Shown: piece after piece, positions 4,086-61,270 of the stretch
How positions within the stretch are numbered: position 1 is the first letter of the stretch
Layout: each line of letters starts with the position of its first letter
Source: an uncultured Gammaproteobacteria bacterium
Lineage (GTDB): Bacteria; Cyanobacteriota; Vampirovibrionia; LMEP-6097; CAYGPN01
DNA: 64,000 nucleotides
Assembly: GCA_964352085.1 (NCBI GenBank)
Contig: CAYGPN010000009.1
Span: 44,539 to 108,538 of the forward strand
Direction: 5' to 3'
The notes under the pieces: generated by a model
Told to the model about the DNA's origin: nothing
The model's database searches: none
What the model saw: only the letters and a program-made list of their open reading frames with translations
Position numbers and translations under genes: made by a program

Positions 4086-5333
4086 CCCATGGGGTCTGAC
4101 CCCATTTTGACCGCGGTAGCGATTATCAACTATGATATTCTTGTCTTCTCTATGGCGTTCTGTGTCTACATAATCAAAATGACCAGCGTCCATATTATAG
4201 AACCAGAGGTTAGGATACTGCACGCGATCAGGATCCTTCTCATTAATTTCCTTACTTAGATTATCTACCAAGTCTTTAGCATAATCATAAGAAGGAACGA
4301 AACCATCTTTACGTGCGCCAAAAAGAAAGAGCCCTGTACTAGGATCTTTATCCGCTTTTACCATTTCTAAAAGCCCAGAAAGATTTTTAGAATTTGCAAT
4401 ATCTCTTTCCTCACCTTCAAAAGCTTTTTCTATAATCCCACCAAAACGCCCTAGAACTCTTGTGCTCACAGGACCTAACATTTCTTTAAAGACATAATGT
4501 TCTTTAGGATTTTTAAGATCATCTATTAAATGTTTAATTGATCTAAGTGGTGTTGCTAGTTTTATAGAATGAAATTTTAGATCTTTAAACTTATCTTTGA
4601 TATCCAAAAGCGCTTGAGGACCAAAAAGTGTGCCTAAAGAACCTAAGAAAAGCTCTAAGTCACTGGTATCTTTGTACTGATTAATTAAATGGTACAAAGC
4701 AGCACTAATATCAGTAACTATAGTGCTAACACTAAGCTCTCGTCTGCCGCTCACATCATTATGCTCTTTACCTGGCGTTATAAATGCTACCCTCTTGCCT
4801 TCTTCAATAGCCATAGCTATTTTAGGCAAGTAACCCGTTGCGTTGAAACCACCACCTGGAACTATAATTTCAGTTCTTGGATTTTTCTTAAACTTAGTTT
4901 GATCCTTGGGCTCAAAAATAGCTATAGAAAGCCCTACTGATTTTTTGCCATCTGGAAAACCGTCATATTTATGCGAAAACTGCGCGCCATCTATCACTTT
5001 TACATTTGCAATATTTACAATCTTTGGTGATAAGACCACATCTTTGATTTTGAAGCGTTCAGAATTACCGTAGCCAACGTAATAGAGCAAACTATCAAGC
5101 GCACTTGCAAACCAATACTTTGGAGTGCGAATGATTTTTCTTAGACCATCAAATAAAATTCTTTGTCTAGCAGCTAATTTTGCTGTAGCTGGATCAAGAG
5201 GCTTCTGAACTTGAGTAGAGGATTGAGAGCTTGCTTGAAGCCCCTTAAAAACACGGTCTATATGTGGATGGCTATAGCCCTGCTGAAGACTAGCAGTGCC
5301 TCTTGCATTTAATGCTAGAGATCCTAAGGCCAT
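4080..5333 (-). CDS. Hypothetical protein, possibly an alpha/beta-hydrolase-like enzyme.
   Basis: A 417-aa ORF with good coding periodicity and a C-terminal DAGHFDY His-containing segment. No confident family assignment. Its 3' end overlaps the convergent upstream ORF by 6 bp. Confidence 0.4.
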   Translation of the reverse strand: MALGSLALNARGTASLQQGYSHPHIDRVFKGLQASSQSSTQVQKPLDPATAKLAARQRILFDGLRKIIRTPKYWFASALDSLLYYVGYGNSERFKIKDVVLSPKIVNIANVKVIDGAQFSHKYDGFPDGKKSVGLSIAIFEPKDQTKFKKNPRTEIIVPGGGFNATGYLPKIAMAIEEGKRVAFITPGKEHNDVSGRRELSVSTIVTDISAALYHLINQYKDTSDLELFLGSLGTLFGPQALLDIKDKFKDLKFHSIKLATPLRSIKHLIDDLKNPKEHYVFKEMLGPVSTRVLGRFGGIIEKAFEGEERDIANSKNLSGLLEMVKADKDPSTGLFLFGARKDGFVPSYDYAKDLVDNLSKEINEKDPDRVQYPNLWFYNMDAGHFDYVDTERHREDKNIIVDNRYRGQNGVRPHGL

Positions 5334-5415
5334 ATTTTTTAGTTAATCAAGGAATACAAGATCCCTCACAAGCTAAGTTCATTATACTATGGCGCTATCG
5401 CCAGGCCTAGGGTGC

Positions 5416-5456
5416 AAAAAAAAGACCAGGGCTAATAACCTTGGTCTTTTAATTTT
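5416..5456. terminator. Bidirectional hairpin terminator (agaccaggg-ctaataa-ccttggtct) flanked by an A-run and a T-run.
   Basis: 9-bp stem with A8 upstream and T-rich sequence downstream, lying between the FKBP gene end and the upstream gene's start. Confidence 0.5.
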
Positions 5457-5471
5457 AATTTAGAGAATTAA

Positions 5472-6113
5472 CTAGTTAATTCTTTGAGAAGAGTCTGGCT
5501 GTTTTTTAATTCCAGGGATAGGAGCTTTTCCTTCCTTGACAGCTTTAGCTTGAGCTCTAATTTTCTCTACTTCTTCTTTAGGTTGAATCTTAAGAACAGT
5601 TACATCATAAAGAAGATCTTTACCAGCTAAAGGGTGATTGTAATCAAGAGTAATTTCTTTATCTGTTACTTTAACTACTTTTACAGGAAGAGTAACAGGT
5701 TTGCCGTTAGCATCTCTCTGATTAGCTGTAATAAACTGACCAGGCTCTACATTTAGCTTGGTGAATCTCTCATCTTTAGGCACAGTAACTACTTTAGTCT
5801 CATCAACTTCACCATAAGCATCTTTAGCTTTCAGGCTAATTTTCTTTTTAGCGCCTTCAGCCATACCAGTGATTTTCTTTTCGAAAGCCGGCAAAATTTG
5901 ATTTGCACCAACTACGATATTTAAAGGATTTTTACCAACGTTAGAATCAAATGTCTCTTTAGAATCTTGATAAATTCCTGTGTATTCAAGAGAAACTAAA
6001 GCGCCTTCGCTAACTTTAGGACCCTTAGCGCAAGAAGCTAAAAAGATCGAAACAAGACAAAATGTACTAACCAACTTAATAATATTTTTCATCATAATAA
6101 TAATATTACCCAA
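5472..6113 (-). CDS. FKBP-type peptidyl-prolyl cis-trans isomerase, lipoprotein.
   Basis: Lipobox LASC, and an FKBP domain signature FDSNVGKNPL...ILPAFEKKITGMAEGAKKKISL...AYG. The true start is probably the internal MKNIIKL. Confidence 0.7.
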   Translation of the reverse strand: MGNIIIMMKNIIKLVSTFCLVSIFLASCAKGPKVSEGALVSLEYTGIYQDSKETFDSNVGKNPLNIVVGANQILPAFEKKITGMAEGAKKKISLKAKDAYGEVDETKVVTVPKDERFTKLNVEPGQFITANQRDANGKPVTLPVKVVKVTDKEITLDYNHPLAGKDLLYDVTVLKIQPKEEVEKIRAQAKAVKEGKAPIPGIKKQPDSSQRIN

Positions 6114-6179
6114 TTTTTTCTAGCTTTGCACATTATGCAAATCTAAATAAAGAGAAAGAATGAGTATAGCGAAATATTA

Positions 6180-7421
6180 TTAAATATTACCTTGCAAGCC
6201 AAAGCCAATGGTCCAGTTGCTATCAAGTGCGTTGCCTTGAGATGATGGTTTCGGCTGATCTACGTTGAAATCAAGATGAGCCACTGATGCTAAGTACTCG
6301 TTAAATCTATGCTTCCAAGTAGCAGAGATAAGGTTTCTTAAAATATGATCAGTATTATTACCAGCTTCAAAGAAAGAATCAAACATAGTCCAATGCGCGC
6401 CAATCATGTCTTTTCTACCAAGCATATAGAATGCACCAGCTGAAACAGTATTAATTGTAAATTCAGCTGTTTGGAAACTAGAGTTAAAAGTACCCCATCT
6501 AGCATAAGGAATAAAGTTTTTGTATTTTTGGATTAATGAACCATACCAAAGGTAACCATTACCATTATCATCAACCTGAAAAGCTTTAGCTCCACCAACT
6601 ATATAGCCAAAAACAATTTGACCAGGATTTTTATGACCCCAATTTTTCTTTAATTCATTAGAAAAAGACAGTGTCTGAGAGAAGCTTTCTAGCTTATGCG
6701 TGCTAATTGCACCTGTATAAGAAAATCTATCAAAGATAGTTTCGCCATCATTATCCTTTAAGCCAAAAGCAAAACCATAGCTTCCTGTATCAGTAGCACC
6801 AGGTCTATCAAAACCACGAGCTGCGTTCATGACATTAATAATAGGGTTTGTGTTAACAATAGAGCCCATATGAATCGCATCACCAATATCTAAAAAAGAA
6901 CTAGTATGAAATCTCTCACCAATATCAAAATTATCAGGTGTTATCTCATCTTTATCTAAAAAACGACGATTTGCAAATTTACCAAAAACAGCAAAGGCTT
7001 CATTATCTTTTGGAAGCTTCACATCATGTCTATAGAAAAGTTCTGGAAGATCTATAAGACCATCTTTGAAGACATTAACGTCCTCATCTAATATAGAAAA
7101 GCCTTCTACACGAGTGAGCAAGCGACCTTGGTTCTCGTAGTTTTTCCCTTCTCTATTTCTTACAATTCCGGTGTATAGCTGCGCTCGATAATCACCAGTT
7201 AATTTATACTCATCATCACCAGGTCTATTATTAAACCAAGTATTATAAAGCGCTCCATCAGCACGAAAATTGAAAACATCACTTAAATTATTCAATCGAA
7301 TACTACCATCATCTTGAATAATTGGTTCAACGCTTTCTTGTGTTCTGTCGATATTACCAATAGCGAATGCAGGCGCGCTAACGCTAAAAGCTAAAGCTGT
7401 AGATAAAAGGAAACGTTTCAA
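6180..7421 (-). CDS. Secreted hypothetical protein, possibly an outer-membrane protein.
   Basis: Signal peptide MKRFLLSTALAFSVSAPAFA. Rich in aromatic/Gly/Asn beta-strand-like segments, but the C-terminus (…QGNI) lacks the canonical terminal aromatic residue of OM beta-barrels. Confidence 0.4.
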   Translation of the reverse strand: MKRFLLSTALAFSVSAPAFAIGNIDRTQESVEPIIQDDGSIRLNNLSDVFNFRADGALYNTWFNNRPGDDEYKLTGDYRAQLYTGIVRNREGKNYENQGRLLTRVEGFSILDEDVNVFKDGLIDLPELFYRHDVKLPKDNEAFAVFGKFANRRFLDKDEITPDNFDIGERFHTSSFLDIGDAIHMGSIVNTNPIINVMNAARGFDRPGATDTGSYGFAFGLKDNDGETIFDRFSYTGAISTHKLESFSQTLSFSNELKKNWGHKNPGQIVFGYIVGGAKAFQVDDNGNGYLWYGSLIQKYKNFIPYARWGTFNSSFQTAEFTINTVSAGAFYMLGRKDMIGAHWTMFDSFFEAGNNTDHILRNLISATWKHRFNEYLASVAHLDFNVDQPKPSSQGNALDSNWTIGFGLQGNI

Positions 7422-25375: not shown

Positions 25376-26533
25376 TTATAAAACAGTAGCTAGCCTAGAC
25401 CAATGGCTAGTTTGAACATTATCAGAAATTTGAAAGGCTTCTTCCTTATTACAAAGCAAATAAGCTTTGGAATCTGGCTTAAGCTTCACAAAAGCCTCTA
25501 AAGATTTTCCATATTCTTTTTTTGGTGTTGCTGTGAGTTTCACTTCTGTTGCTATCACTTGCCCTTTATACTCAATTATAAAATCAACCTCTAAACCATT
25601 ATTGTCTCTAAAAAAATATATGCTTGGTTTTTTTCCTTGATGGTTAAAGAACTTAACAAGCTCACTTAAAACCAATCCCTCAAAAAGAGCTCCAGACATT
25701 GGTCCTTTTTGTATTTGCTCTTCACTTGCGTGCCCTGTAAGATGGCTTACTATTCCTGGATCCAAGAAATATAATTTTTGAGATTTCACTATACGCTTAC
25801 CTAAATTATTATGGTATGGAGGCACCAGATAAATTAATTGGCTTTTTTCTAATAAGGCAATCCAAGACTGAACTGTTAATTTGCTTACACCAAGCTCTTT
25901 TGATAGAGAAGCAAAATTCAATTCCTGAGAACTTCTTAGAGCTATTAATTTTATAAACTGGTCATAAACTTTTATATGCTCTTTTTTTATATTTGCTCTT
26001 ATATCCTTATTTAAAATTGTGTCAATGTAAGAATCAAACCATAATGTTCTATCCATTTCTTTAATATTAGGTTCTGGATACAATCCTTTAAGTACGATTT
26101 TAGACCAAAGTGGCACTTCTTTTGAATACAATTCTTGAACAGAGAAAGGATTTAAAGATAGAACAGCCATGCGCCCAGCAAGGCTTTCATGAACATCAGC
26201 CATTAGGTTAAATTGCTGCGATCCAGTAAGAACAAAAGCTCCTTCTTTTTGCTCATTATCAACTTTCTTTTTTATATATGAAAGTAAGTCAGGGGCGTTT
26301 TGAATTTCATCTATAATAAGCGGGCATTCATTATATTTTAAAAACAAGTCGGGGTCTTCATTTGCTTGCCTGCGTGTTTCTATATCATCCAAGCTCACAT
26401 AGTTATATTCTGGCAATATCGCTTTTAAAAGCGTAGATTTGCCAGACTGCCTAGCACCAGTTAATAAAATCACTTTAAACTGAGCGATTGCTTTTTTGAG
26501 AATATTTGAAAGATCTCTCTTAAAATATGGCAC
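25376..26533 (-). CDS. AAA+ ATPase of the COG1373/DUF4143 type with a C-terminal PD-(D/E)xK-like segment (paralog 1).
   Basis: Walker A TGARQSGKST, Walker B LIIDEIQ, and C-terminal …GLEVDFIIEYKGQVIATEVK. Confidence 0.6.
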   Translation of the reverse strand: MPYFKRDLSNILKKAIAQFKVILLTGARQSGKSTLLKAILPEYNYVSLDDIETRRQANEDPDLFLKYNECPLIIDEIQNAPDLLSYIKKKVDNEQKEGAFVLTGSQQFNLMADVHESLAGRMAVLSLNPFSVQELYSKEVPLWSKIVLKGLYPEPNIKEMDRTLWFDSYIDTILNKDIRANIKKEHIKVYDQFIKLIALRSSQELNFASLSKELGVSKLTVQSWIALLEKSQLIYLVPPYHNNLGKRIVKSQKLYFLDPGIVSHLTGHASEEQIQKGPMSGALFEGLVLSELVKFFNHQGKKPSIYFFRDNNGLEVDFIIEYKGQVIATEVKLTATPKKEYGKSLEAFVKLKPDSKAYLLCNKEEAFQISDNVQTSHWSRLATVL

Positions 26534-26641: not shown

Positions 26642-27417
26642 CAGTCTAGCCTAAAGTGAGCTAAAAACTCCACATTACCTTTAGCGCCTTTAATTGGTGA
26701 TTCTGTTAAAGCTAGCTTTTTATAACCCTGCTCTTCTATCTGGCTAATTACTCTTTCCACTATTTCATTACGAATCGTTTCGTCAGTGATCACACCTTTA
26801 AATTTATCAGCTATTTTTTTACCTGCTTCAAATTGAGGTTTAATCAGAAAAACGATATCTGTTTTATCATCAGCTAAAACAATCTTTAAATTTTCCAAGA
26901 TCTTTGTAATAGAAATAAAAGAAAGATCTGCAACAACCATATCAACTTGCTCATTATCAGGGAGCTTAAGCTCTTCTCTTTTTAAATCTTTTACATTTTT
27001 CCCTTCGATATTTAAAATGCGTTTATCATCTCTAATTTTATAAGCAAGCTGCCCTTTGCCTACATCTATTGCTATCACTCTTTTAGCGCCATTTTGAAGT
27101 GAGTAGTCAGTGAAGCCACCAGTCGATGCGCCCAAATCCAAAATCACTTTATCTTTAAAATCTAATTTAAAATCCTGATGAGCTTTTTCAAGCTTGTAAG
27201 CGCCTCTACTAACGTAAGGCATAGACTTATCCTGAACTTCTATTAGATTAGGGTTCTCTTCGAGTTTTTTTATACTCACTTGAGTGCCAGCTTTATTCTG
27301 CACTTGACCAGCTACTTTTACGTAATTAGACATAATTGCAGTGCGCGCCTTTTCGCGGCTATCATAATAGCCTTGCTCAAGAAGTATTTGATCTAGTCGT
27401 TTTTTAGACAAATTCAT
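26641..27417 (-). CDS. tlyA: TlyA family rRNA 2'-O-methyltransferase (hemolysin A-like) with an S4 domain.
   Basis: N-terminal S4-like KRLDQILLEQGYYDSREKARTAIM and an FtsJ-like SAM motif ILDLGASTGGFTDY. Confidence 0.7.
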   Translation of the reverse strand: MNLSKKRLDQILLEQGYYDSREKARTAIMSNYVKVAGQVQNKAGTQVSIKKLEENPNLIEVQDKSMPYVSRGAYKLEKAHQDFKLDFKDKVILDLGASTGGFTDYSLQNGAKRVIAIDVGKGQLAYKIRDDKRILNIEGKNVKDLKREELKLPDNEQVDMVVADLSFISITKILENLKIVLADDKTDIVFLIKPQFEAGKKIADKFKGVITDETIRNEIVERVISQIEEQGYKKLALTESPIKGAKGNVEFLAHFRLD

Positions 27418-27481: not shown

Positions 27482-28039
27482 ATGAGCCAAACTGCAGTGA
27501 AAAAATATACTTTAAATAAAGGCCTAAGTCTCTGGCTCACTGGATTATCAGGTTCTGGTAAATCTACTATAGCTTATGCTCTTTATAAAAAATTATCAGG
27601 ATCTATCTCACGTATTGAAGTGCTTGATGGAGATGCTATGCGCGAGCATATTAACAAGGGTCTAGGCTTTACTAAAGAAGACAGGCTCATTAACATCGAA
27701 CGTAACGCTTATATAGCCGGACTTTTATCAAAACATGGAATTTTAGTAATAGTTCCAGTAATAGCTCCTTACAAAGAAGCTAGAGCTAAAGCTCGTTCTC
27801 TGAGTGAAAATTTTGTTGAGGTTTTTGTAAAAGCTGATATAGAGACTGTTAAAGAAAGAGATGTTAAAGGTCTTTATAAAAAAGCTATAGCTGGTGAGAT
27901 AGAAAATTTCACTGGAATATCTGATCCTTATGAAGAACCAGAAAATCCTGAGATACTAATTAATACGGATAAATTATCTATTGAAGATTCTGTTCAAAAT
28001 ATTATTGATTATTTAATTGAAAATGACTATATAAGTTAG
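27482..28039 (+). CDS. cysC: Adenylyl-sulfate (APS) kinase.
   Basis: P-loop LWLTGLSGSGKSTIA and overall APS-kinase length and pattern. Confidence 0.7.
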   Translation: MSQTAVKKYTLNKGLSLWLTGLSGSGKSTIAYALYKKLSGSISRIEVLDGDAMREHINKGLGFTKEDRLINIERNAYIAGLLSKHGILVIVPVIAPYKEARAKARSLSENFVEVFVKADIETVKERDVKGLYKKAIAGEIENFTGISDPYEEPENPEILINTDKLSIEDSVQNIIDYLIENDYIS

Positions 28040-28078
28040 TCTATAAATTTCTAATTTAGCCTATTATATTTTTTTGAC

Positions 28079-28420
28079 AGTTTATCTACAGATAGATTGC
28101 TTCGCTTCACTCGCAATGACGGTTTCTAGCCTTTATATTCAAATAGTTGCGTCATTACCAATAATAAAAGCCTTAAGAATACTGTAGAAAACTGTTTATA
28201 ACTTGTAGAAAAGTCTACAGAGAAAGTAGATAAAAATAGGCTCTTTTTCTATTAAAAATCGAAACTGTTCATAACTTTAAAACTGTAGAAAGTTTTCTAC
28301 ATCAATTCTCTAATACAGAAGCCCTCTTTGGGACTTATCTACAAAAACTTATTAGCCTACTACTACTTTTAATATATATAATCTATTGTTCTAATAGTAA
28401 GTATAAATATAAAAATCTCA
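28079..28420. promoter_or_regulatory. Cluster of DnaA-box-like 9-mers (TTATCTACA / TTTTCTACA, both orientations) followed by an AT-rich stretch, lying upstream of dnaN. Candidate oriC.
   Basis: TTATCTACA at 28082 and 28337. TGTAGAAAA (the reverse complement of TTTTCTACA) at about 28185 and 28205. TTTTCTACA at about 28295. CTTTCTACA as a reverse complement at about 28284. AT-rich aatatatataatctattgttctaatagtaagtataaatataaaaat at 28370-28420. Confidence 0.45.
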
Positions 28421-28508
28421 CAATTGGAGATTGTGTAGAATAGAGAGTGTTAAGGAGATGGGTGTTTAAATAAACACTATCCACCTGCACTAAAGAAAGA
28501 GACGGTTT

Positions 28509-29627
28509 ATGAAATTAAAAGTTCCCAAGTCAACATTAGATAAAGCATTAAAAGCTGTATGTCGAGCTGTACCAAATAAGGGGATTCAGCCGATTCTAAA
28601 TAATATTCTTTTAGAAAACAGTAACGGTCATTTGCTTTTAAATGCAACAGATTTGGATTTTTACATTGAAGCTAAAATCCCATCAACAAATATTGATCCT
28701 GGACGTATTACTCTTTCAGCTAAAAAATTAGAAGAAATAGTGGCTAAGCTTGATGACGATGATGTATCTATTGACGTGAATATTGGTACCAATGAAGCAA
28801 AGCTAGAGTGTAATAGCGCTCATTTTGATTTGCTTGGTATTTCTGCTGAAGATTTTCCTGAATTCAAAAAACCAACATCAGAAAACTTTTTTTCAGTTGA
28901 AGCTAGTAAACTGGCTAGAGCTCTTAATCTTGTAAGTTTTTCAGCATCTAGATTTGATATCAATAATATCTTAGGTGGTGTTTATATGTGCATCACTGAC
29001 GGGGTTTTAGAGCTTGCAGCAACTGATGGTAATAGACTTTCTAGTTATGAGTTAAAGCTTGAAAATGCGCCTACTGAGCTTGAAGGTAAAGAAGTTGTTG
29101 TGCCTGTTAAAGTGATTGACGAGGTTAATAAAATTATCGAAAGCAGCGTGGATGAAAATGTAGAAATTGCATTTTTAAACTCACAGATTGTAATCAAGAC
29201 AGAAGATAGGTTTGTGGTTTCTAGACTCCTTGATGGCGTTTATCCTAAATACAAACAACTTATACCGAAAGAGAGTGATAAGATCGCTCAACTTGATCGT
29301 AAGGCTTTTTATAGCTCACTTGAAAGAGTTGCTGTGATGGCAAATGAAAGAACTAATTTAGTTAAACTTAGCTTTAATGAAAATCTACTTGATATTCAAT
29401 CTAGTAATTTAGATCTTGGTGGCGCTGAGGATAATATGGAAGTTGAGTATATGGGAGAGCCAATAGATATCTTCTTTAACGTTAAATATATGCTTGAGGC
29501 TATTAAAAATATAAATTCTGAGAAGATACAAATCGCTATGACTAAATCATTAAGCCCAGCAATTATTAAGCCAATTTCTGAAGATAAGTTTATTTACCTC
29601 ATAATGCCTGTTAAATCAAAGGCTTAG
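28509..29627 (+). CDS. dnaN: DNA polymerase III beta sliding clamp.
   Basis: 372 aa. N-terminus MKLKVPKSTLDKALKAVCRAVPNKGIQPILNNILLE, a three-domain length, and C-terminus …PAIIKPI…YLIMPVK, all typical of DnaN. Confidence 0.75.
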   Translation: MKLKVPKSTLDKALKAVCRAVPNKGIQPILNNILLENSNGHLLLNATDLDFYIEAKIPSTNIDPGRITLSAKKLEEIVAKLDDDDVSIDVNIGTNEAKLECNSAHFDLLGISAEDFPEFKKPTSENFFSVEASKLARALNLVSFSASRFDINNILGGVYMCITDGVLELAATDGNRLSSYELKLENAPTELEGKEVVVPVKVIDEVNKIIESSVDENVEIAFLNSQIVIKTEDRFVVSRLLDGVYPKYKQLIPKESDKIAQLDRKAFYSSLERVAVMANERTNLVKLSFNENLLDIQSSNLDLGGAEDNMEVEYMGEPIDIFFNVKYMLEAIKNINSEKIQIAMTKSLSPAIIKPISEDKFIYLIMPVKSKA

Positions 29628-29628
29628 G

Positions 29629-29766
29629 GTCATTACGAGCAATTTTATGTCATTGCGAGTAAAGCGAAGCAATCCCATGGATCACCACGTCGCCTTTGGC
29701 TCCTCGTGATGACATGCTAGCTGAACTCCTCGTGATGACATGCTAGCTGCGCTCCTCGCAATGACG
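29629..29766. repeat. Intergenic palindromic repeat element cluster, with modules gtcattgcgag / gcgaagcaatcc / atggatcaccacg / ctcgtgatgac.
   Basis: Directly visible; shares modules with the loci at 40280, 41526, 49419, 61240 and 63569. Confidence 0.8.
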
Positions 29767-29917
29767 AGTTAGAATATATATATTGTGGCTGAAGACATAG
29801 ATATCAAGATAAAAAAAATACTTGATGAGCTTTTTGCAGGATCAATAAGCGAGGAGACTAAGGATCTTCTTGTTCAAATAGTTAGTGATGAGGTCACGAA
29901 CTGATAACGGTAGCTAA

Positions 29918-32582: not shown

Positions 32583-33713
32583 ATGCATATAAACCGGGCT
32601 CTTAAAGTAGAGATAATCAGCAAGCTTAAAGATAGTAATAAAATAATCATCTTATATGGCCCCAGACAGATTGGTAAGACCACCCTGGCTAACAGGGTCA
32701 TTGAGGATCTTGGTTTTAGAACCTTAAGCATTAATGCTGATGAGCTTAAATATAATGAGATTCTTTCCAGTCGCGATTTAACTAAGCTCAAATCTTTAGT
32801 AAGCGGTTATGAATTGCTTTTTATAGATGAGGCACAAAGAATAAAAGATATAGGCATTAACCTAAAAATCCTTAAGGATAATTTAGCTGATTTGAAAATT
32901 ATAGTCACAGGTTCCTCAACTTTAGATTTAGCAAATGAACTAAAAGAACCTTTAACAGGAAGAACCTGGACCTATAATCTTTATCCAATATCTTTCCTTG
33001 AGTTGAAAGAGCATTTTAATGACTTTGAACTAAAAGAACAGCTAGAAGAGAAAATGATCTTCGGTCTTTACCCTGAGCTTTTTAGTATCGAAAACAGAGA
33101 AGAAAAAATTCAATATCTTGAAGAAATCAGCAGGTCTTATTTATATAAAGATGTCTTGGAGATTTCAAATATTAAGCATTCTTATAAGCTTAGAGATCTT
33201 CTTAAGTTGCTAGCTTTTCAGATAGGCTCAGAAGTCTCTCTCAATGAGCTTGGCAGACAATTAGATATGTCTAAAGAAACAGTAGCTAATTACATTAATC
33301 TTCTTGAGAAATCTTTTGTACTTTATAGATTGAGTGGTTTGAGCCGTAATCTTAGAAAAGAAGTCTCTAAAATGGATAAGATTTATTTTTATGATCTTGG
33401 TATAAGAAACATTCTTATAGATAATATGAAAGATCTTAAAGATAGAGATGATAAAGGAAAGCTTTTTGAGAATTTCTTAGTTATAGAACGTTTAAAACGA
33501 AATAAATACACAGCAAATTACTGTTCAGAGTATTTCTGGAGAATATATACTGGCGCTGAATTGGATTATGTAGAAGATAAAGATGGCAAATTTTCTGCTT
33601 ATGAATTTAAGTTTGCTAAAGAAAAAGCTAAAGTACCACAATCATGGCAAGAGGCTTATTCGGGTTCTTTTGAGCTTATTAATAAGGATAACTTCTTAGA
33701 ATTTATTCGCTAA
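32583..33713 (+). CDS. AAA+ ATPase of the COG1373/DUF4143 type with a C-terminal PD-(D/E)xK-like segment (paralog 2).
   Basis: Walker A YGPRQIGKTT, Walker B LLFIDEAQ, and C-terminal GAELDYVEDKDGKFSAYEFK. Confidence 0.6.
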   Translation: MHINRALKVEIISKLKDSNKIIILYGPRQIGKTTLANRVIEDLGFRTLSINADELKYNEILSSRDLTKLKSLVSGYELLFIDEAQRIKDIGINLKILKDNLADLKIIVTGSSTLDLANELKEPLTGRTWTYNLYPISFLELKEHFNDFELKEQLEEKMIFGLYPELFSIENREEKIQYLEEISRSYLYKDVLEISNIKHSYKLRDLLKLLAFQIGSEVSLNELGRQLDMSKETVANYINLLEKSFVLYRLSGLSRNLRKEVSKMDKIYFYDLGIRNILIDNMKDLKDRDDKGKLFENFLVIERLKRNKYTANYCSEYFWRIYTGAELDYVEDKDGKFSAYEFKFAKEKAKVPQSWQEAYSGSFELINKDNFLEFIR

Positions 33714-58651: not shown

Positions 58652-58662
58652 GATTTTAGGCT

Positions 58663-59877
58663 ATGAAATCAATAAAAAGAGAAATTAACCAAGATATTTT
58701 AAAATATCTTGGAAACGATCAAATACTGCTTTTAATTGGTGCAAGGCAGGTAGGTAAGACTACAATTCTGAGGCAGATCAAGACTCATCTAGAAGTTCAA
58801 AGCTTGCAGACTCATTTTATTAATTTAGAAGATCCAGAGTACTTAGCATTAATAAATGAATCACCTAAAAATCTTTTTAAAATATTGTCTATAAATCTAG
58901 AAAGTAAATCTTATATTTTTATAGACGAGATTCAGTATCTAGATAATCCTAGTAATTTTTTGAAATATTTTTATGATGAATACGGCGAGAAAATGAAGCT
59001 TATAGTTTCAGGTTCTTCTGCCTTTTATATAGACTCAAAATTTCAAGATTCGTTAGCTGGAAGAAAAAAGATCTTTTATGTGCGCAACTTGTCATTTAGT
59101 GAATTTCTATTATTTAAAGACCAAGAAGCATTATCTAAAAAAAGCTATATCTCTTTAAGTCTTAAAGAGAAAGACATAGTGCAGCGTGCTTTTGAGGAGT
59201 ATCTTGTCTATGGAGGCTATCCTAGAGTGGCTCTAAGCTCTGATCTTGAAGAGAAAAAAGAGATTTTAAGAGAGCTTGCTTACTCATATATTAAAAAAGA
59301 TATTTTTGAATCAAAAATTAAAGATGATAAGTCTTTTTATGCTTTGATGAGAATTCTGGCTGACCAAGTAGGCTCACTAGTTAATTCAAATGAACTGGCG
59401 TCTACCCTAGCTATTTCCAAGTCTAGTGTTGATAACTATCTAAATATCTTGCAGAAATCTTTTCATATATTTTTAGTGAAACCTTTTAGTAAAAACATAC
59501 GTAAAGAGCTTACTAAAATGCCTAAAGTCTATTTTGCTGATATGGGCTTGAGGAATTTTCTGGTGCGCGACTTTGAGCCATATGCTCTTAGAAGTGATAA
59601 AGGAGAGCTTTTAGAGAATATAGTTTTTAGGAAACTTTTAGATACTAATCATCATGAGGATATTATGTTTTGGAGAACTGCTGAAAAGCAAGAGCTAGAC
59701 TTTGTCTTGCAGGATAAAGCTGCAATTGAAGTTAAGGCTAATCCAGAAAAGTTTAATGTCAAAAAATACCAAAAATTTATAGAAGTTTATCCGGAAAAAG
59801 AGCTTAGTTTGGTTTCTTATGATTACAAAGGCTCTGCAGACTTTCCGGTTAAATATAAAGATGTTTTAGAGCTTTAA
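58663..59877 (+). CDS. AAA+ ATPase of the COG1373/DUF4143 type with a C-terminal PD-(D/E)xK-like segment (paralog 3).
   Basis: Walker A IGARQVGKTT, Walker B IFIDEIQ, and C-terminal QELDFVLQDKAAIEVK. Confidence 0.6.
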   Translation: MKSIKREINQDILKYLGNDQILLLIGARQVGKTTILRQIKTHLEVQSLQTHFINLEDPEYLALINESPKNLFKILSINLESKSYIFIDEIQYLDNPSNFLKYFYDEYGEKMKLIVSGSSAFYIDSKFQDSLAGRKKIFYVRNLSFSEFLLFKDQEALSKKSYISLSLKEKDIVQRAFEEYLVYGGYPRVALSSDLEEKKEILRELAYSYIKKDIFESKIKDDKSFYALMRILADQVGSLVNSNELASTLAISKSSVDNYLNILQKSFHIFLVKPFSKNIRKELTKMPKVYFADMGLRNFLVRDFEPYALRSDKGELLENIVFRKLLDTNHHEDIMFWRTAEKQELDFVLQDKAAIEVKANPEKFNVKKYQKFIEVYPEKELSLVSYDYKGSADFPVKYKDVLEL

Positions 59878-61239: not shown

Positions 61240-61267
61240 GGATTGCTTCGCTTTACTCGCAATGACA
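61240..61267. repeat. Partial copy of the palindromic repeat element (ggattgcttcgctttactcgcaatgaca).
   Basis: Matches the 3' half of the unit; lies between leuC and the chaperonin gene. Confidence 0.7.
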
Positions 61268-61270
61268 GGC

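Follow-up and report, generated by a model that had tools for sequence, protein, structure and literature searches.

The spacer between cysC and dnaN as a candidate replication origin

In the 64,000-nucleotide stretch of DNA analysed here (the window), the beta sliding clamp gene dnaN (28509–29627, plus strand; Pfam DNA_pol3_beta domains 1–3) is transcribed away from a 469-bp spacer (28040–28508) whose left-hand neighbour is cysC rather than dnaA. A sequence-only reading had proposed a candidate replication origin upstream of dnaN, and the locus raises the question of whether replication could begin in this spacer, away from the gene for the initiator. An excess of DnaA boxes, DnaA-trios, an AT-rich tract and a conserved layout all bear the proposal out. 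From these sequence features we consider it highly likely that the cysC–dnaN spacer is oriC, or at least the unwinding module, of a Caenarcaniphilales-like bacterium (class Vampirovibrionia/Melainabacteria). To our knowledge, no origin has previously been described in this lineage.

The left neighbour encodes adenylylsulfate kinase (cysC, 27482–28039, plus strand; Pfam APS_kinase, 9e-56), and the spacer has a G+C content of 29% in a window of ~36% overall. Rfam and tRNA scans of the window gave no match. The closest homologues of the window's DnaN are 54–77% identical to it, and more distant ones are named Candidatus Caenarcaniphilales, Melainabacteria, Vampirovibrio or 'Cyanobacteria bacterium'; the NCBI taxonomy places Caenarcaniphilales as an order within Melainabacteria, class Vampirovibriophyceae. 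A genome-contig scan with a single DnaN protein as query gave no match, whereas an alignment-based DnaN query against species-representative genomes succeeded and returned 59 dnaN loci, most of them titled Caenarcanales, Vampirovibrionales, Obscuribacterales or Melainabacteria. Some MAG records with Vampirovibrionia-type dnaN loci bear the titles of unrelated taxa and are probably mislabelled, including 'uncultured Gammaproteobacteria' (L012–L014, L018, L021, L023, L026, L054 and L067), Oculatellaceae or Coleofasciculaceae (L041, L051) and 'Proteobacteria' (L049, L035).

Two further features of the neighbourhood were observed. An AAA_14/DUF4143 ATPase is represented by at least four paralogues scattered about the origin region (25376–26533, minus strand; 32583–33713 and 58660–59877, plus strand; and 13384–14541 in L071), and copies near dnaN also occur in relatives (L005). 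Between dnaN and a PBP-like gene, relatives have a tiny called ORF of 34–41 amino acids (L005, 6124–6228; L006, 4540–4665; L007, 11143–11259; L008, 11144–11257); the same gap in the window (29628–29917) holds a copy of a dispersed repeat.

Predicted DnaA boxes are concentrated in the spacer

Five of the eight exact matches to TTWTCTACA in the 64 kb fall within the spacer, at 28082 (+), 28183 (−), 28204 (−), 28293 (+) and 28335 (+). They are accompanied by three sites with one mismatch, TTATCTACT at 28225 (−), CTTTCTACA at 28284 (−) and TATTCTACA at 28434 (−), and by the two-mismatch site AAGTCTACA at 28211 (+). The earlier count of seven or more boxes in both orientations within ~270 bp stands if one mismatch is allowed (seven in 28082–28343), but not for exact matches. 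Similarly, the description of the motif as one mismatch from the consensus is correct for TTATCTACA relative to TTATCCACA, but not for the commoner form, TTTTCTACA, which is two mismatches from TTATCCACA and one from the cyanobacterial TTTTCCACA.

From left to right, the cluster opens with a predicted distal DnaA box, TTATCTACA, at 28082–28090 (plus strand, exact match). An array of three leftward boxes with a start-to-start spacing of 21 bp follows on the minus strand (28183–28233), comprising TTTTCTACA at 28183–28191 and 28204–28212 and TTATCTACT at 28225–28233, and enclosing the weak plus-strand box AAGTCTACA (28211–28219) and the minus-strand variant TTATAAACA (28193–28201). Next come TTATGAACA at 28266–28274 (minus strand), which belongs to a secondary motif class, TTWTRAACA, and a back-to-back pair, TGTAGAAAG|TTTTCTACA, at 28284–28301, in which CTTTCTACA occupies the minus strand (28284–28292) and TTTTCTACA the plus strand (28293–28301). 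The last predicted box, an exact TTATCTACA at 28335–28343 (plus strand), faces the DnaA-trios described below and is near-invariant in an alignment of relatives. Sites of the secondary class, usually GTTTTGAACA, co-occur with TCTACA boxes and lie in the window at 27991–27999, 28193–28201 and 28266–28274, all on the minus strand. In relatives, TTTTGAACA co-occurs with TTTTCTACA and is the site nearest the trios in L016, L023, L025 and L028; this class may represent low-affinity DnaA boxes.

The enrichment is pronounced. When the spacer itself was dinucleotide-shuffled, none of 5000 shuffles reached the observed five exact and eight one-mismatch sites (shuffle means of 0.03 exact sites and 0.75 sites at one mismatch or fewer). 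Eight of the window's 40 TCTACA cores fall within the spacer, and box density is 17 per kb there versus 1.3 per kb in the rest of the window. The density is thus ~13 times the background, whereas the sequence-only reading had named a density no higher than background as evidence against an origin. For nine loci taken together, the enrichment is 11.5-fold. Elsewhere in the window, no 469-bp stretch retains a cluster with an intact TCTACA core; the apparent clusters are AT-rich near-misses that lose it.

The spacer also contains a copy of a dispersed repeat (28095–28122, plus strand; core GATTGCTTCGCTTYACTCGCAATGAC, 28097–28122) between the first box and the remaining boxes. The earlier mention of a partial palindromic repeat inside the region was accurate, as the ~26-nt core is present with two further copies in the window, at 29647–29672 (minus strand), just past the dnaN stop codon, and at 61243–61268 (plus strand). 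Its ends are short and self-complementary. The repeat was absent from the spacers of relatives and from L073, being found only in loci of the same genome, and we do not count it among the origin elements. This copy and the 29% G+C of the spacer are what might suggest a chance cluster in AT-rich DNA or the remnant of a mobile element. With no shuffle reaching the observed counts, a layout conserved across an order, and a repeat that is genome-specific and lies outside the conserved elements, we regard that explanation as effectively refuted.

The back-to-back pair bears on a different reading, in which the sites are operators and a different transcription factor binds the palindrome TGTAGAAAG/TTTTCTACA as a dimer. 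The pair is a near-perfect inverted repeat (28284–28301) and is conserved. Most copies, however, stand alone as half-sites, facing either way and unevenly spaced, and the logo of 103 box sites is asymmetric (aAGTTT-TCTACA; the 3' flank is not conserved), as expected of a DnaA box bound by a monomer. The motif is also one letter off the cyanobacterial DnaA box, and in Obscuribacterales it lies between dnaA and dnaN, exactly where Firmicute controls have TTATCCACA. We therefore consider a dimeric factor very improbable, and treat the sites as predicted DnaA boxes hereafter.

DnaA-trios and the least stable duplex of the window follow the last box

Downstream of the box at 28335–28343, a 13-nt spacer, AAAACTTATTAGC (28344–28356, plus strand), leads to a run of DnaA-trios, CTA CTA CTA CTT TTA ATA (28357–28374, plus strand; 3'-GAT GAT GAT GAA AAT TAT-5' on the bottom strand), which the sequence-only reading did not mention. 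The trios start 13 nt past the last box and directly before an AT-rich tract, the predicted DNA unwinding element (28367–28416). The ~50-bp stretch of nearly pure A/T noted earlier before dnaN corresponds to this tract, which is 90% A+T and constitutes the least stable 50-mer duplex in the 64 kb (dG −45.7 versus a mean of −61.6, sd 4.3; 3.7 sd below the mean). Another AT-rich segment, the 80-mer at 27996–28075, was considered as an unwinding site and rejected, since the first box faces away from it and it has no adjoining trios.

In a published survey of such modules, 13 bp was the commonest distance between box and trios, and at least three trios were required (PMC8287927). The 13 nt found here fit the 0–16 bp range, relatives having 12–15, and at least three consecutive 3'-NAN-5' trios (consensus GAT) are present at 28357–28374. 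On the correct strand, the box precedes the trios in the 5'-to-3' direction, the top strand reading TTATCTACA ... CTACTACTA, as checked against the supplement of PMC8287927 and the Firmicute controls L065 and L066. A tandem second box with a 4-bp GC-rich cluster, which occurs in 57% of predicted cases and is not obligatory, is absent: AAAACTTATTAGC contains no box-like 9-mer, and its last bases, TAGC, are 50% G+C. Both elements occur in L008, L017 and L019, where a tandem second box is followed by a 4-bp G+C-containing spacer (AGCC or GCAC), for example TTTTCTACA-TTTCTACA-AGCC.

The elements themselves, with their order, spacing, orientation, statistical excess and conservation, are shown by the sequences; DnaA binding, unwinding and firing at the spacer are proposed by analogy. 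As in B. subtilis, each asymmetric 9-mer of the form TTWTCTACA would be bound by domain IV of DnaA. The distal boxes (28082; 28183/28204/28225; 28284/28293) would concentrate DnaA locally and supply it to the proximal box at 28335, from which an oligomer of ATP-DnaA may extend, 13 nt downstream, onto the 3'-GAT-5' trios of one strand (28357–28374). By stretching this strand, the oligomer would open the adjoining 50-bp, 90% A+T tract (28367–28416), where the helicase would be loaded, and forks would depart both ways with dnaN on the leading strand.

Between the tract and dnaN, a palindrome, CACAAT-N5-ATTGTG, is followed by a −10-like TAGAAT at 28436–28441 (28419–28441 in all, plus strand, read from the sequence), and this is a probable dnaN promoter or operator region. 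A consensus promoter/terminator scan did not call a promoter at 28419–28441 and was uninformative. Relatives have TGTGTACAAT at the equivalent place. The palindrome with a −10-like TAGAAT or TACAAT between unwinding element and dnaN has equivalents in L004, L006, L010 and L011, and a TGTGTAC motif in the same interval is conserved even in relatives with 50% G+C. Since the one-mismatch site at 28434–28442 overlaps the −10-like TAGAAT, which is TACAAT in relatives, it probably belongs to the promoter and is not a DnaA box.

The position of the cluster just upstream of this probable promoter would also suit a DnaA-binding region outside the origin, serving only to control dnaN transcription or to titrate DnaA, with replication firing elsewhere, for instance beside dnaA. 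DnaA does bind boxes outside oriC to control transcription (PMC7198777). Regulation alone, however, would not call for correctly oriented trios 13 nt from a box, nor for the least stable duplex in the 64 kb immediately behind them, and we judge a purely regulatory role unlikely.

GC skew near the spacer

The sequence-only reading had held that a GC-skew minimum far from this position would count against an origin. The cumulative G−C minimum of the window lies at 27378, adjacent to the site (~0.7–1 kb away), which also speaks against the purely regulatory role, although the signal is weak and the breakpoint is poorly resolved in 64 kb. With gene orientation controlled, the genes of either strand had a higher top-strand skew to the right of the site (p = 0.04 for plus-strand genes, 0.02 for minus-strand genes). 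Local skew mostly tracks gene orientation, with a replication component of ~0.02 compared to a coding-strand component of ~0.10. As fitting a breakpoint improved the residual by only ~11%, and a break near 12 kb was almost as good in one model, we regard the skew as weak support.

The box-trio layout is conserved in relatives

The cysC–dnaN gene order is kept in relatives L004–L009, and the relatives retaining cysC beside dnaN have DnaN proteins 75, 70, 64, 61 and 58% identical to that of the window. Across relatives with 56–75% DnaN identity the spacers have diverged, and the islands that persist are the boxes, the trios and the AT tract: several TTWTCTACA boxes, a rightward proximal box, and CTACTAYTACT followed by an AT-rich tract. 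In an alignment of six genomes (DnaN 58–100% identical), near-invariance is limited to the boxes, the trios and the dnaN start, and CTACTAYTACT is invariant save at its single Y position.

Within the back-to-back pair, the right-hand box is near-invariant in the six genomes, varying only at box position 3 in L006, while L007 and L008 have lost the left-hand box, which the other four retain, and the flanks of the pair are unconserved. The three-box array with 21-bp spacing is also found in L004 (4733, 4754 and 4775), and L006 has two boxes 21 bp apart (3075 and 3096). The pattern of box, spacer and trios occurs once per locus, upstream of dnaN and on the dnaN strand; besides this, the window and L007 each have one chance match with two CTAs. 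The same pattern was found again in further Caenarcaniphilales loci.

The location of dnaA

The absence of dnaA and the presence of cysC upstream of dnaN, both claimed from the sequence alone, were confirmed by the Pfam assignment of cysC and by searches for DnaA. Pfam scans of the window's 49 ORFs of at least 150 amino acids detected no Bac_DnaA domain, and tblastn with E. coli DnaA found no match in the window, while the same search gave dnaA in five control loci. Neither was dnaA present in the 10 kb beyond the left end of the window; the contig ends just past its right end. A six-frame search with the regular expression RDH[ST]T[VI] had no match, this pattern being invalid for the clade, whose DnaA reads RKHTSA. 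The DnaA of Caenarcaniphilales was not found through Obscuribacterales-seeded protein searches, a representative library, cluster names or 10-kb extensions. These searches gave the named DnaAs of three other orders and two candidates from AT-rich genomes, P0274 (T433) and P0277 (K433), neither of which is assignable to Caenarcaniphilales. We infer DnaA dependence from the conservation of the boxes, as the bacterium's own dnaA was not found in the window or the 10 kb to its left; some cyanobacteria replicate without DnaA, from multiple origins (PMC7198777).

The broken dnaA–dnaN pairing pointed out earlier is no anomaly, since dnaA and dnaN are normally apart in cyanobacteria and the origin of S. 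elongatus has been mapped by experiment to the vicinity of dnaN (PMC7198777). Among 66 tabulated loci, dnaA is directly upstream of dnaN only in two Obscuribacterales, one mislabelled MAG of 62% G+C and two Firmicute controls. In the Obscuribacterales (L052, 4502–5983; L053), boxes with T at position 6 (T6 boxes) and trios lie inside the dnaA–dnaN spacer, which suggests how the arrangement in the window arose. As Obscuribacterales keep the order dnaA–oriC–dnaN and Caenarcaniphilales and Vampirovibrionales do not, the split falls within the class. In the simplest history compatible with these gene orders, the origin would have stayed with dnaN and dnaA would have relocated. The locus may thereby trace the departure of dnaA from the origin, adjacent in Obscuribacterales and gone in Caenarcaniphilales and Vampirovibrionales. 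The dnaA–oriC–dnaN order, listed for L052, L053 and L049, appears to be ancestral.

The AT-rich relative L073 (35% G+C) has a classical yidC-rnpA-rpmH | dnaA arrangement (4649–6401) without dnaN downstream. Such an rpmH–dnaA region could in principle host the origin, as a purely regulatory role for the dnaN-proximal cluster would have it. The rpmH–dnaA spacer and the spacer downstream of dnaA in L073 nevertheless contained no exact TTWTCTACA and no cluster, the only site being one degenerate TCTTCTACA.

A class-wide box variant and residue 433 of DnaA

At least one TTWTCTACA lies upstream of dnaN in 50 of 64 Vampirovibrionia-type loci, whereas TTWTCCACA occurs in one (L054, a single site); Firmicute controls show the reverse pattern, with three to four TTWTCCACA sites. 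TCCACA is absent from the cysC–dnaN spacer, so that the cyanobacterial species box TTTTCCACA is not found there. None of the top-ranked matches of a literature search for TTTTCTACA treats this sequence as a DnaA box.

The Obscuribacterales query retrieved DnaA proteins of which almost all have R-K-H-T-S-A-L-Y in place of the R-D-H-T-T-V-L-H of E. coli. Alignment to the structure of E. coli domain IV (1J1V) identified these changes as D433K and H439Y, with R399, P423, H434 and T435 retained; all six positions (R399, P423, D433, H434, T435 and H439) make base-specific contacts (PMC2533591), and the Asp-His pair at 433–434 is highly conserved (PMC5043019). R-K-H-T was found in DnaA clusters named Obscuribacterales, Vampirovibrionales and Candidatus Adamsella, and K433 together with Y439 in clusters named Vampirovibrio/Vampirovibrionales and Candidatus Adamsella. 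D433 is kept in ~106 of the 128 readable sequences among the 150 best representatives, and the DnaA of the 35% G+C lineage L073 has T433 (RTHSSAIY). In the alignment, M. tuberculosis DnaA also carries Y at position 439, yet its box keeps the CCACA core (YWRTCCACA; PMC5043019). Because H439Y is shared with a species that retains CCACA, we infer that residue 433 is the candidate for the change from C to T.

These observations lead us to favour, by a narrow margin, the idea that the whole class Vampirovibrionia has re-specified initiator–origin recognition, with the box TTTTCTACA (T6 in place of the near-invariant C) co-varying with D433K. The T6 box and D433K would then provide a natural, testable case of initiator–site co-evolution. 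Origins with T6 boxes would score too low in prediction tools that rely on TTATCCACA or TTTTCCACA.

Comparison with known origins

The basal unwinding system (BUS) of B. subtilis oriC is said to reside in incC and to consist of DnaA-boxes 6 and 7, a GC cluster, DnaA-trios and an AT-rich region ahead of dnaN (Richardson 2016 and 2019; Pelliciari 2021). The B. subtilis sequence is TTATCCACA-AATCCACA-GGCC-CTACTATTAC, which the published data set writes as 3'-AATAGGTGT TTAGGTGT CCGG GATGATAATGAA-5' (PMC8287927). The window agrees with it in order, strand and direction, from the rightward box through a short spacer (13 nt here, 12 there) and at least three GAT trios to the AT tract and dnaN; distal boxes in either orientation are a further likeness to incC (PMC6669920). 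Since orientation, spacing and trio sequence all agree, the module matches a basal unwinding system. It differs from that of B. subtilis in that dnaA is not upstream, the box is TTWTCTACA rather than TTATCCACA, and there is no recognisable tandem second box or clear GC cluster. The dnaA–dnaN spacers of the Firmicute controls have the same layout (TTATCCACA-GCCCC-CTATTACTACTAC in L066; CTTATCCAC-TTATCAACA-GCCC-CTACTACTATTAC in L065).

The origin of S. elongatus PCC 7942, like the candidate described here, lies beside dnaN with dnaA elsewhere (PMC7198777). Its module reads TTTTCCACA-TTTTCCACA-GCCC-CTACTACTACTG, or 3'-AAAAGGTGT AAAAGGTGT CGGG GATGATGATGAC-5' in the published data set (PMC8287927). 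The spacer is 13 in both, and the trios are near-identical (GAT GAT GAT GAC in S. elongatus and GAT GAT GAT GAA in the window). The S. elongatus origin has been experimentally mapped, is DnaA-dependent and uses TTTTCCACA boxes, whereas the boxes here, and across Vampirovibrionia, are TTTTCTACA and DnaA dependence is putative. The box-trio unwinding module would extend to the sister class of the cyanobacteria, which is non-photosynthetic.

Epsilonproteobacterial origins offer a precedent for a box that has shifted by one letter throughout a clade, along with changes at the N-terminal end of helix 5 in DnaA (PMC5043019). Epsilonproteobacteria have a fixed T at position 5, while the shift seen here is at position 6 with the residue change D433K, and is known from sequence alone.

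E. coli oriC likewise combines a cluster of 9-mer boxes with an AT-rich unwinding element apart from dnaA. The BUS score of E. coli is weak and its architecture rearranged (PMC8287927), in contrast to the canonical layout of the window. GATC sites, moreover, are not clustered in the window, with one in the 700 bp upstream of dnaN versus 4.0 per kb elsewhere. Vampirovibrio-type relatives of ~50% G+C have 16–23 GATC sites in the corresponding 700 bp (23–33 per kb, against 2.5–3.9 per kb in the flanks); such regions were seen in L010, L011, L038, L042, L047, L048, L055 and L068, while the window's lineage is without this clustering. These GATC-rich putative origins resemble the Dam/SeqA-controlled oriC of E. 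coli, yet lie outside Gammaproteobacteria, and in L010 and L011 an N6_N4_Mtase gene is located ~6 kb downstream of dnaN.

Placed among these systems, the cysC–dnaN spacer is very probably an ordinary chromosomal origin, which would give this genome its coordinate zero, the orientation of its replichores and a reference for growth-rate estimates from metagenome read depth. It would combine a canonical unwinding module of the kind present in B. subtilis and S. elongatus with a class-wide, one-letter variant of the DnaA box, plausibly matched by a change in the initiator.
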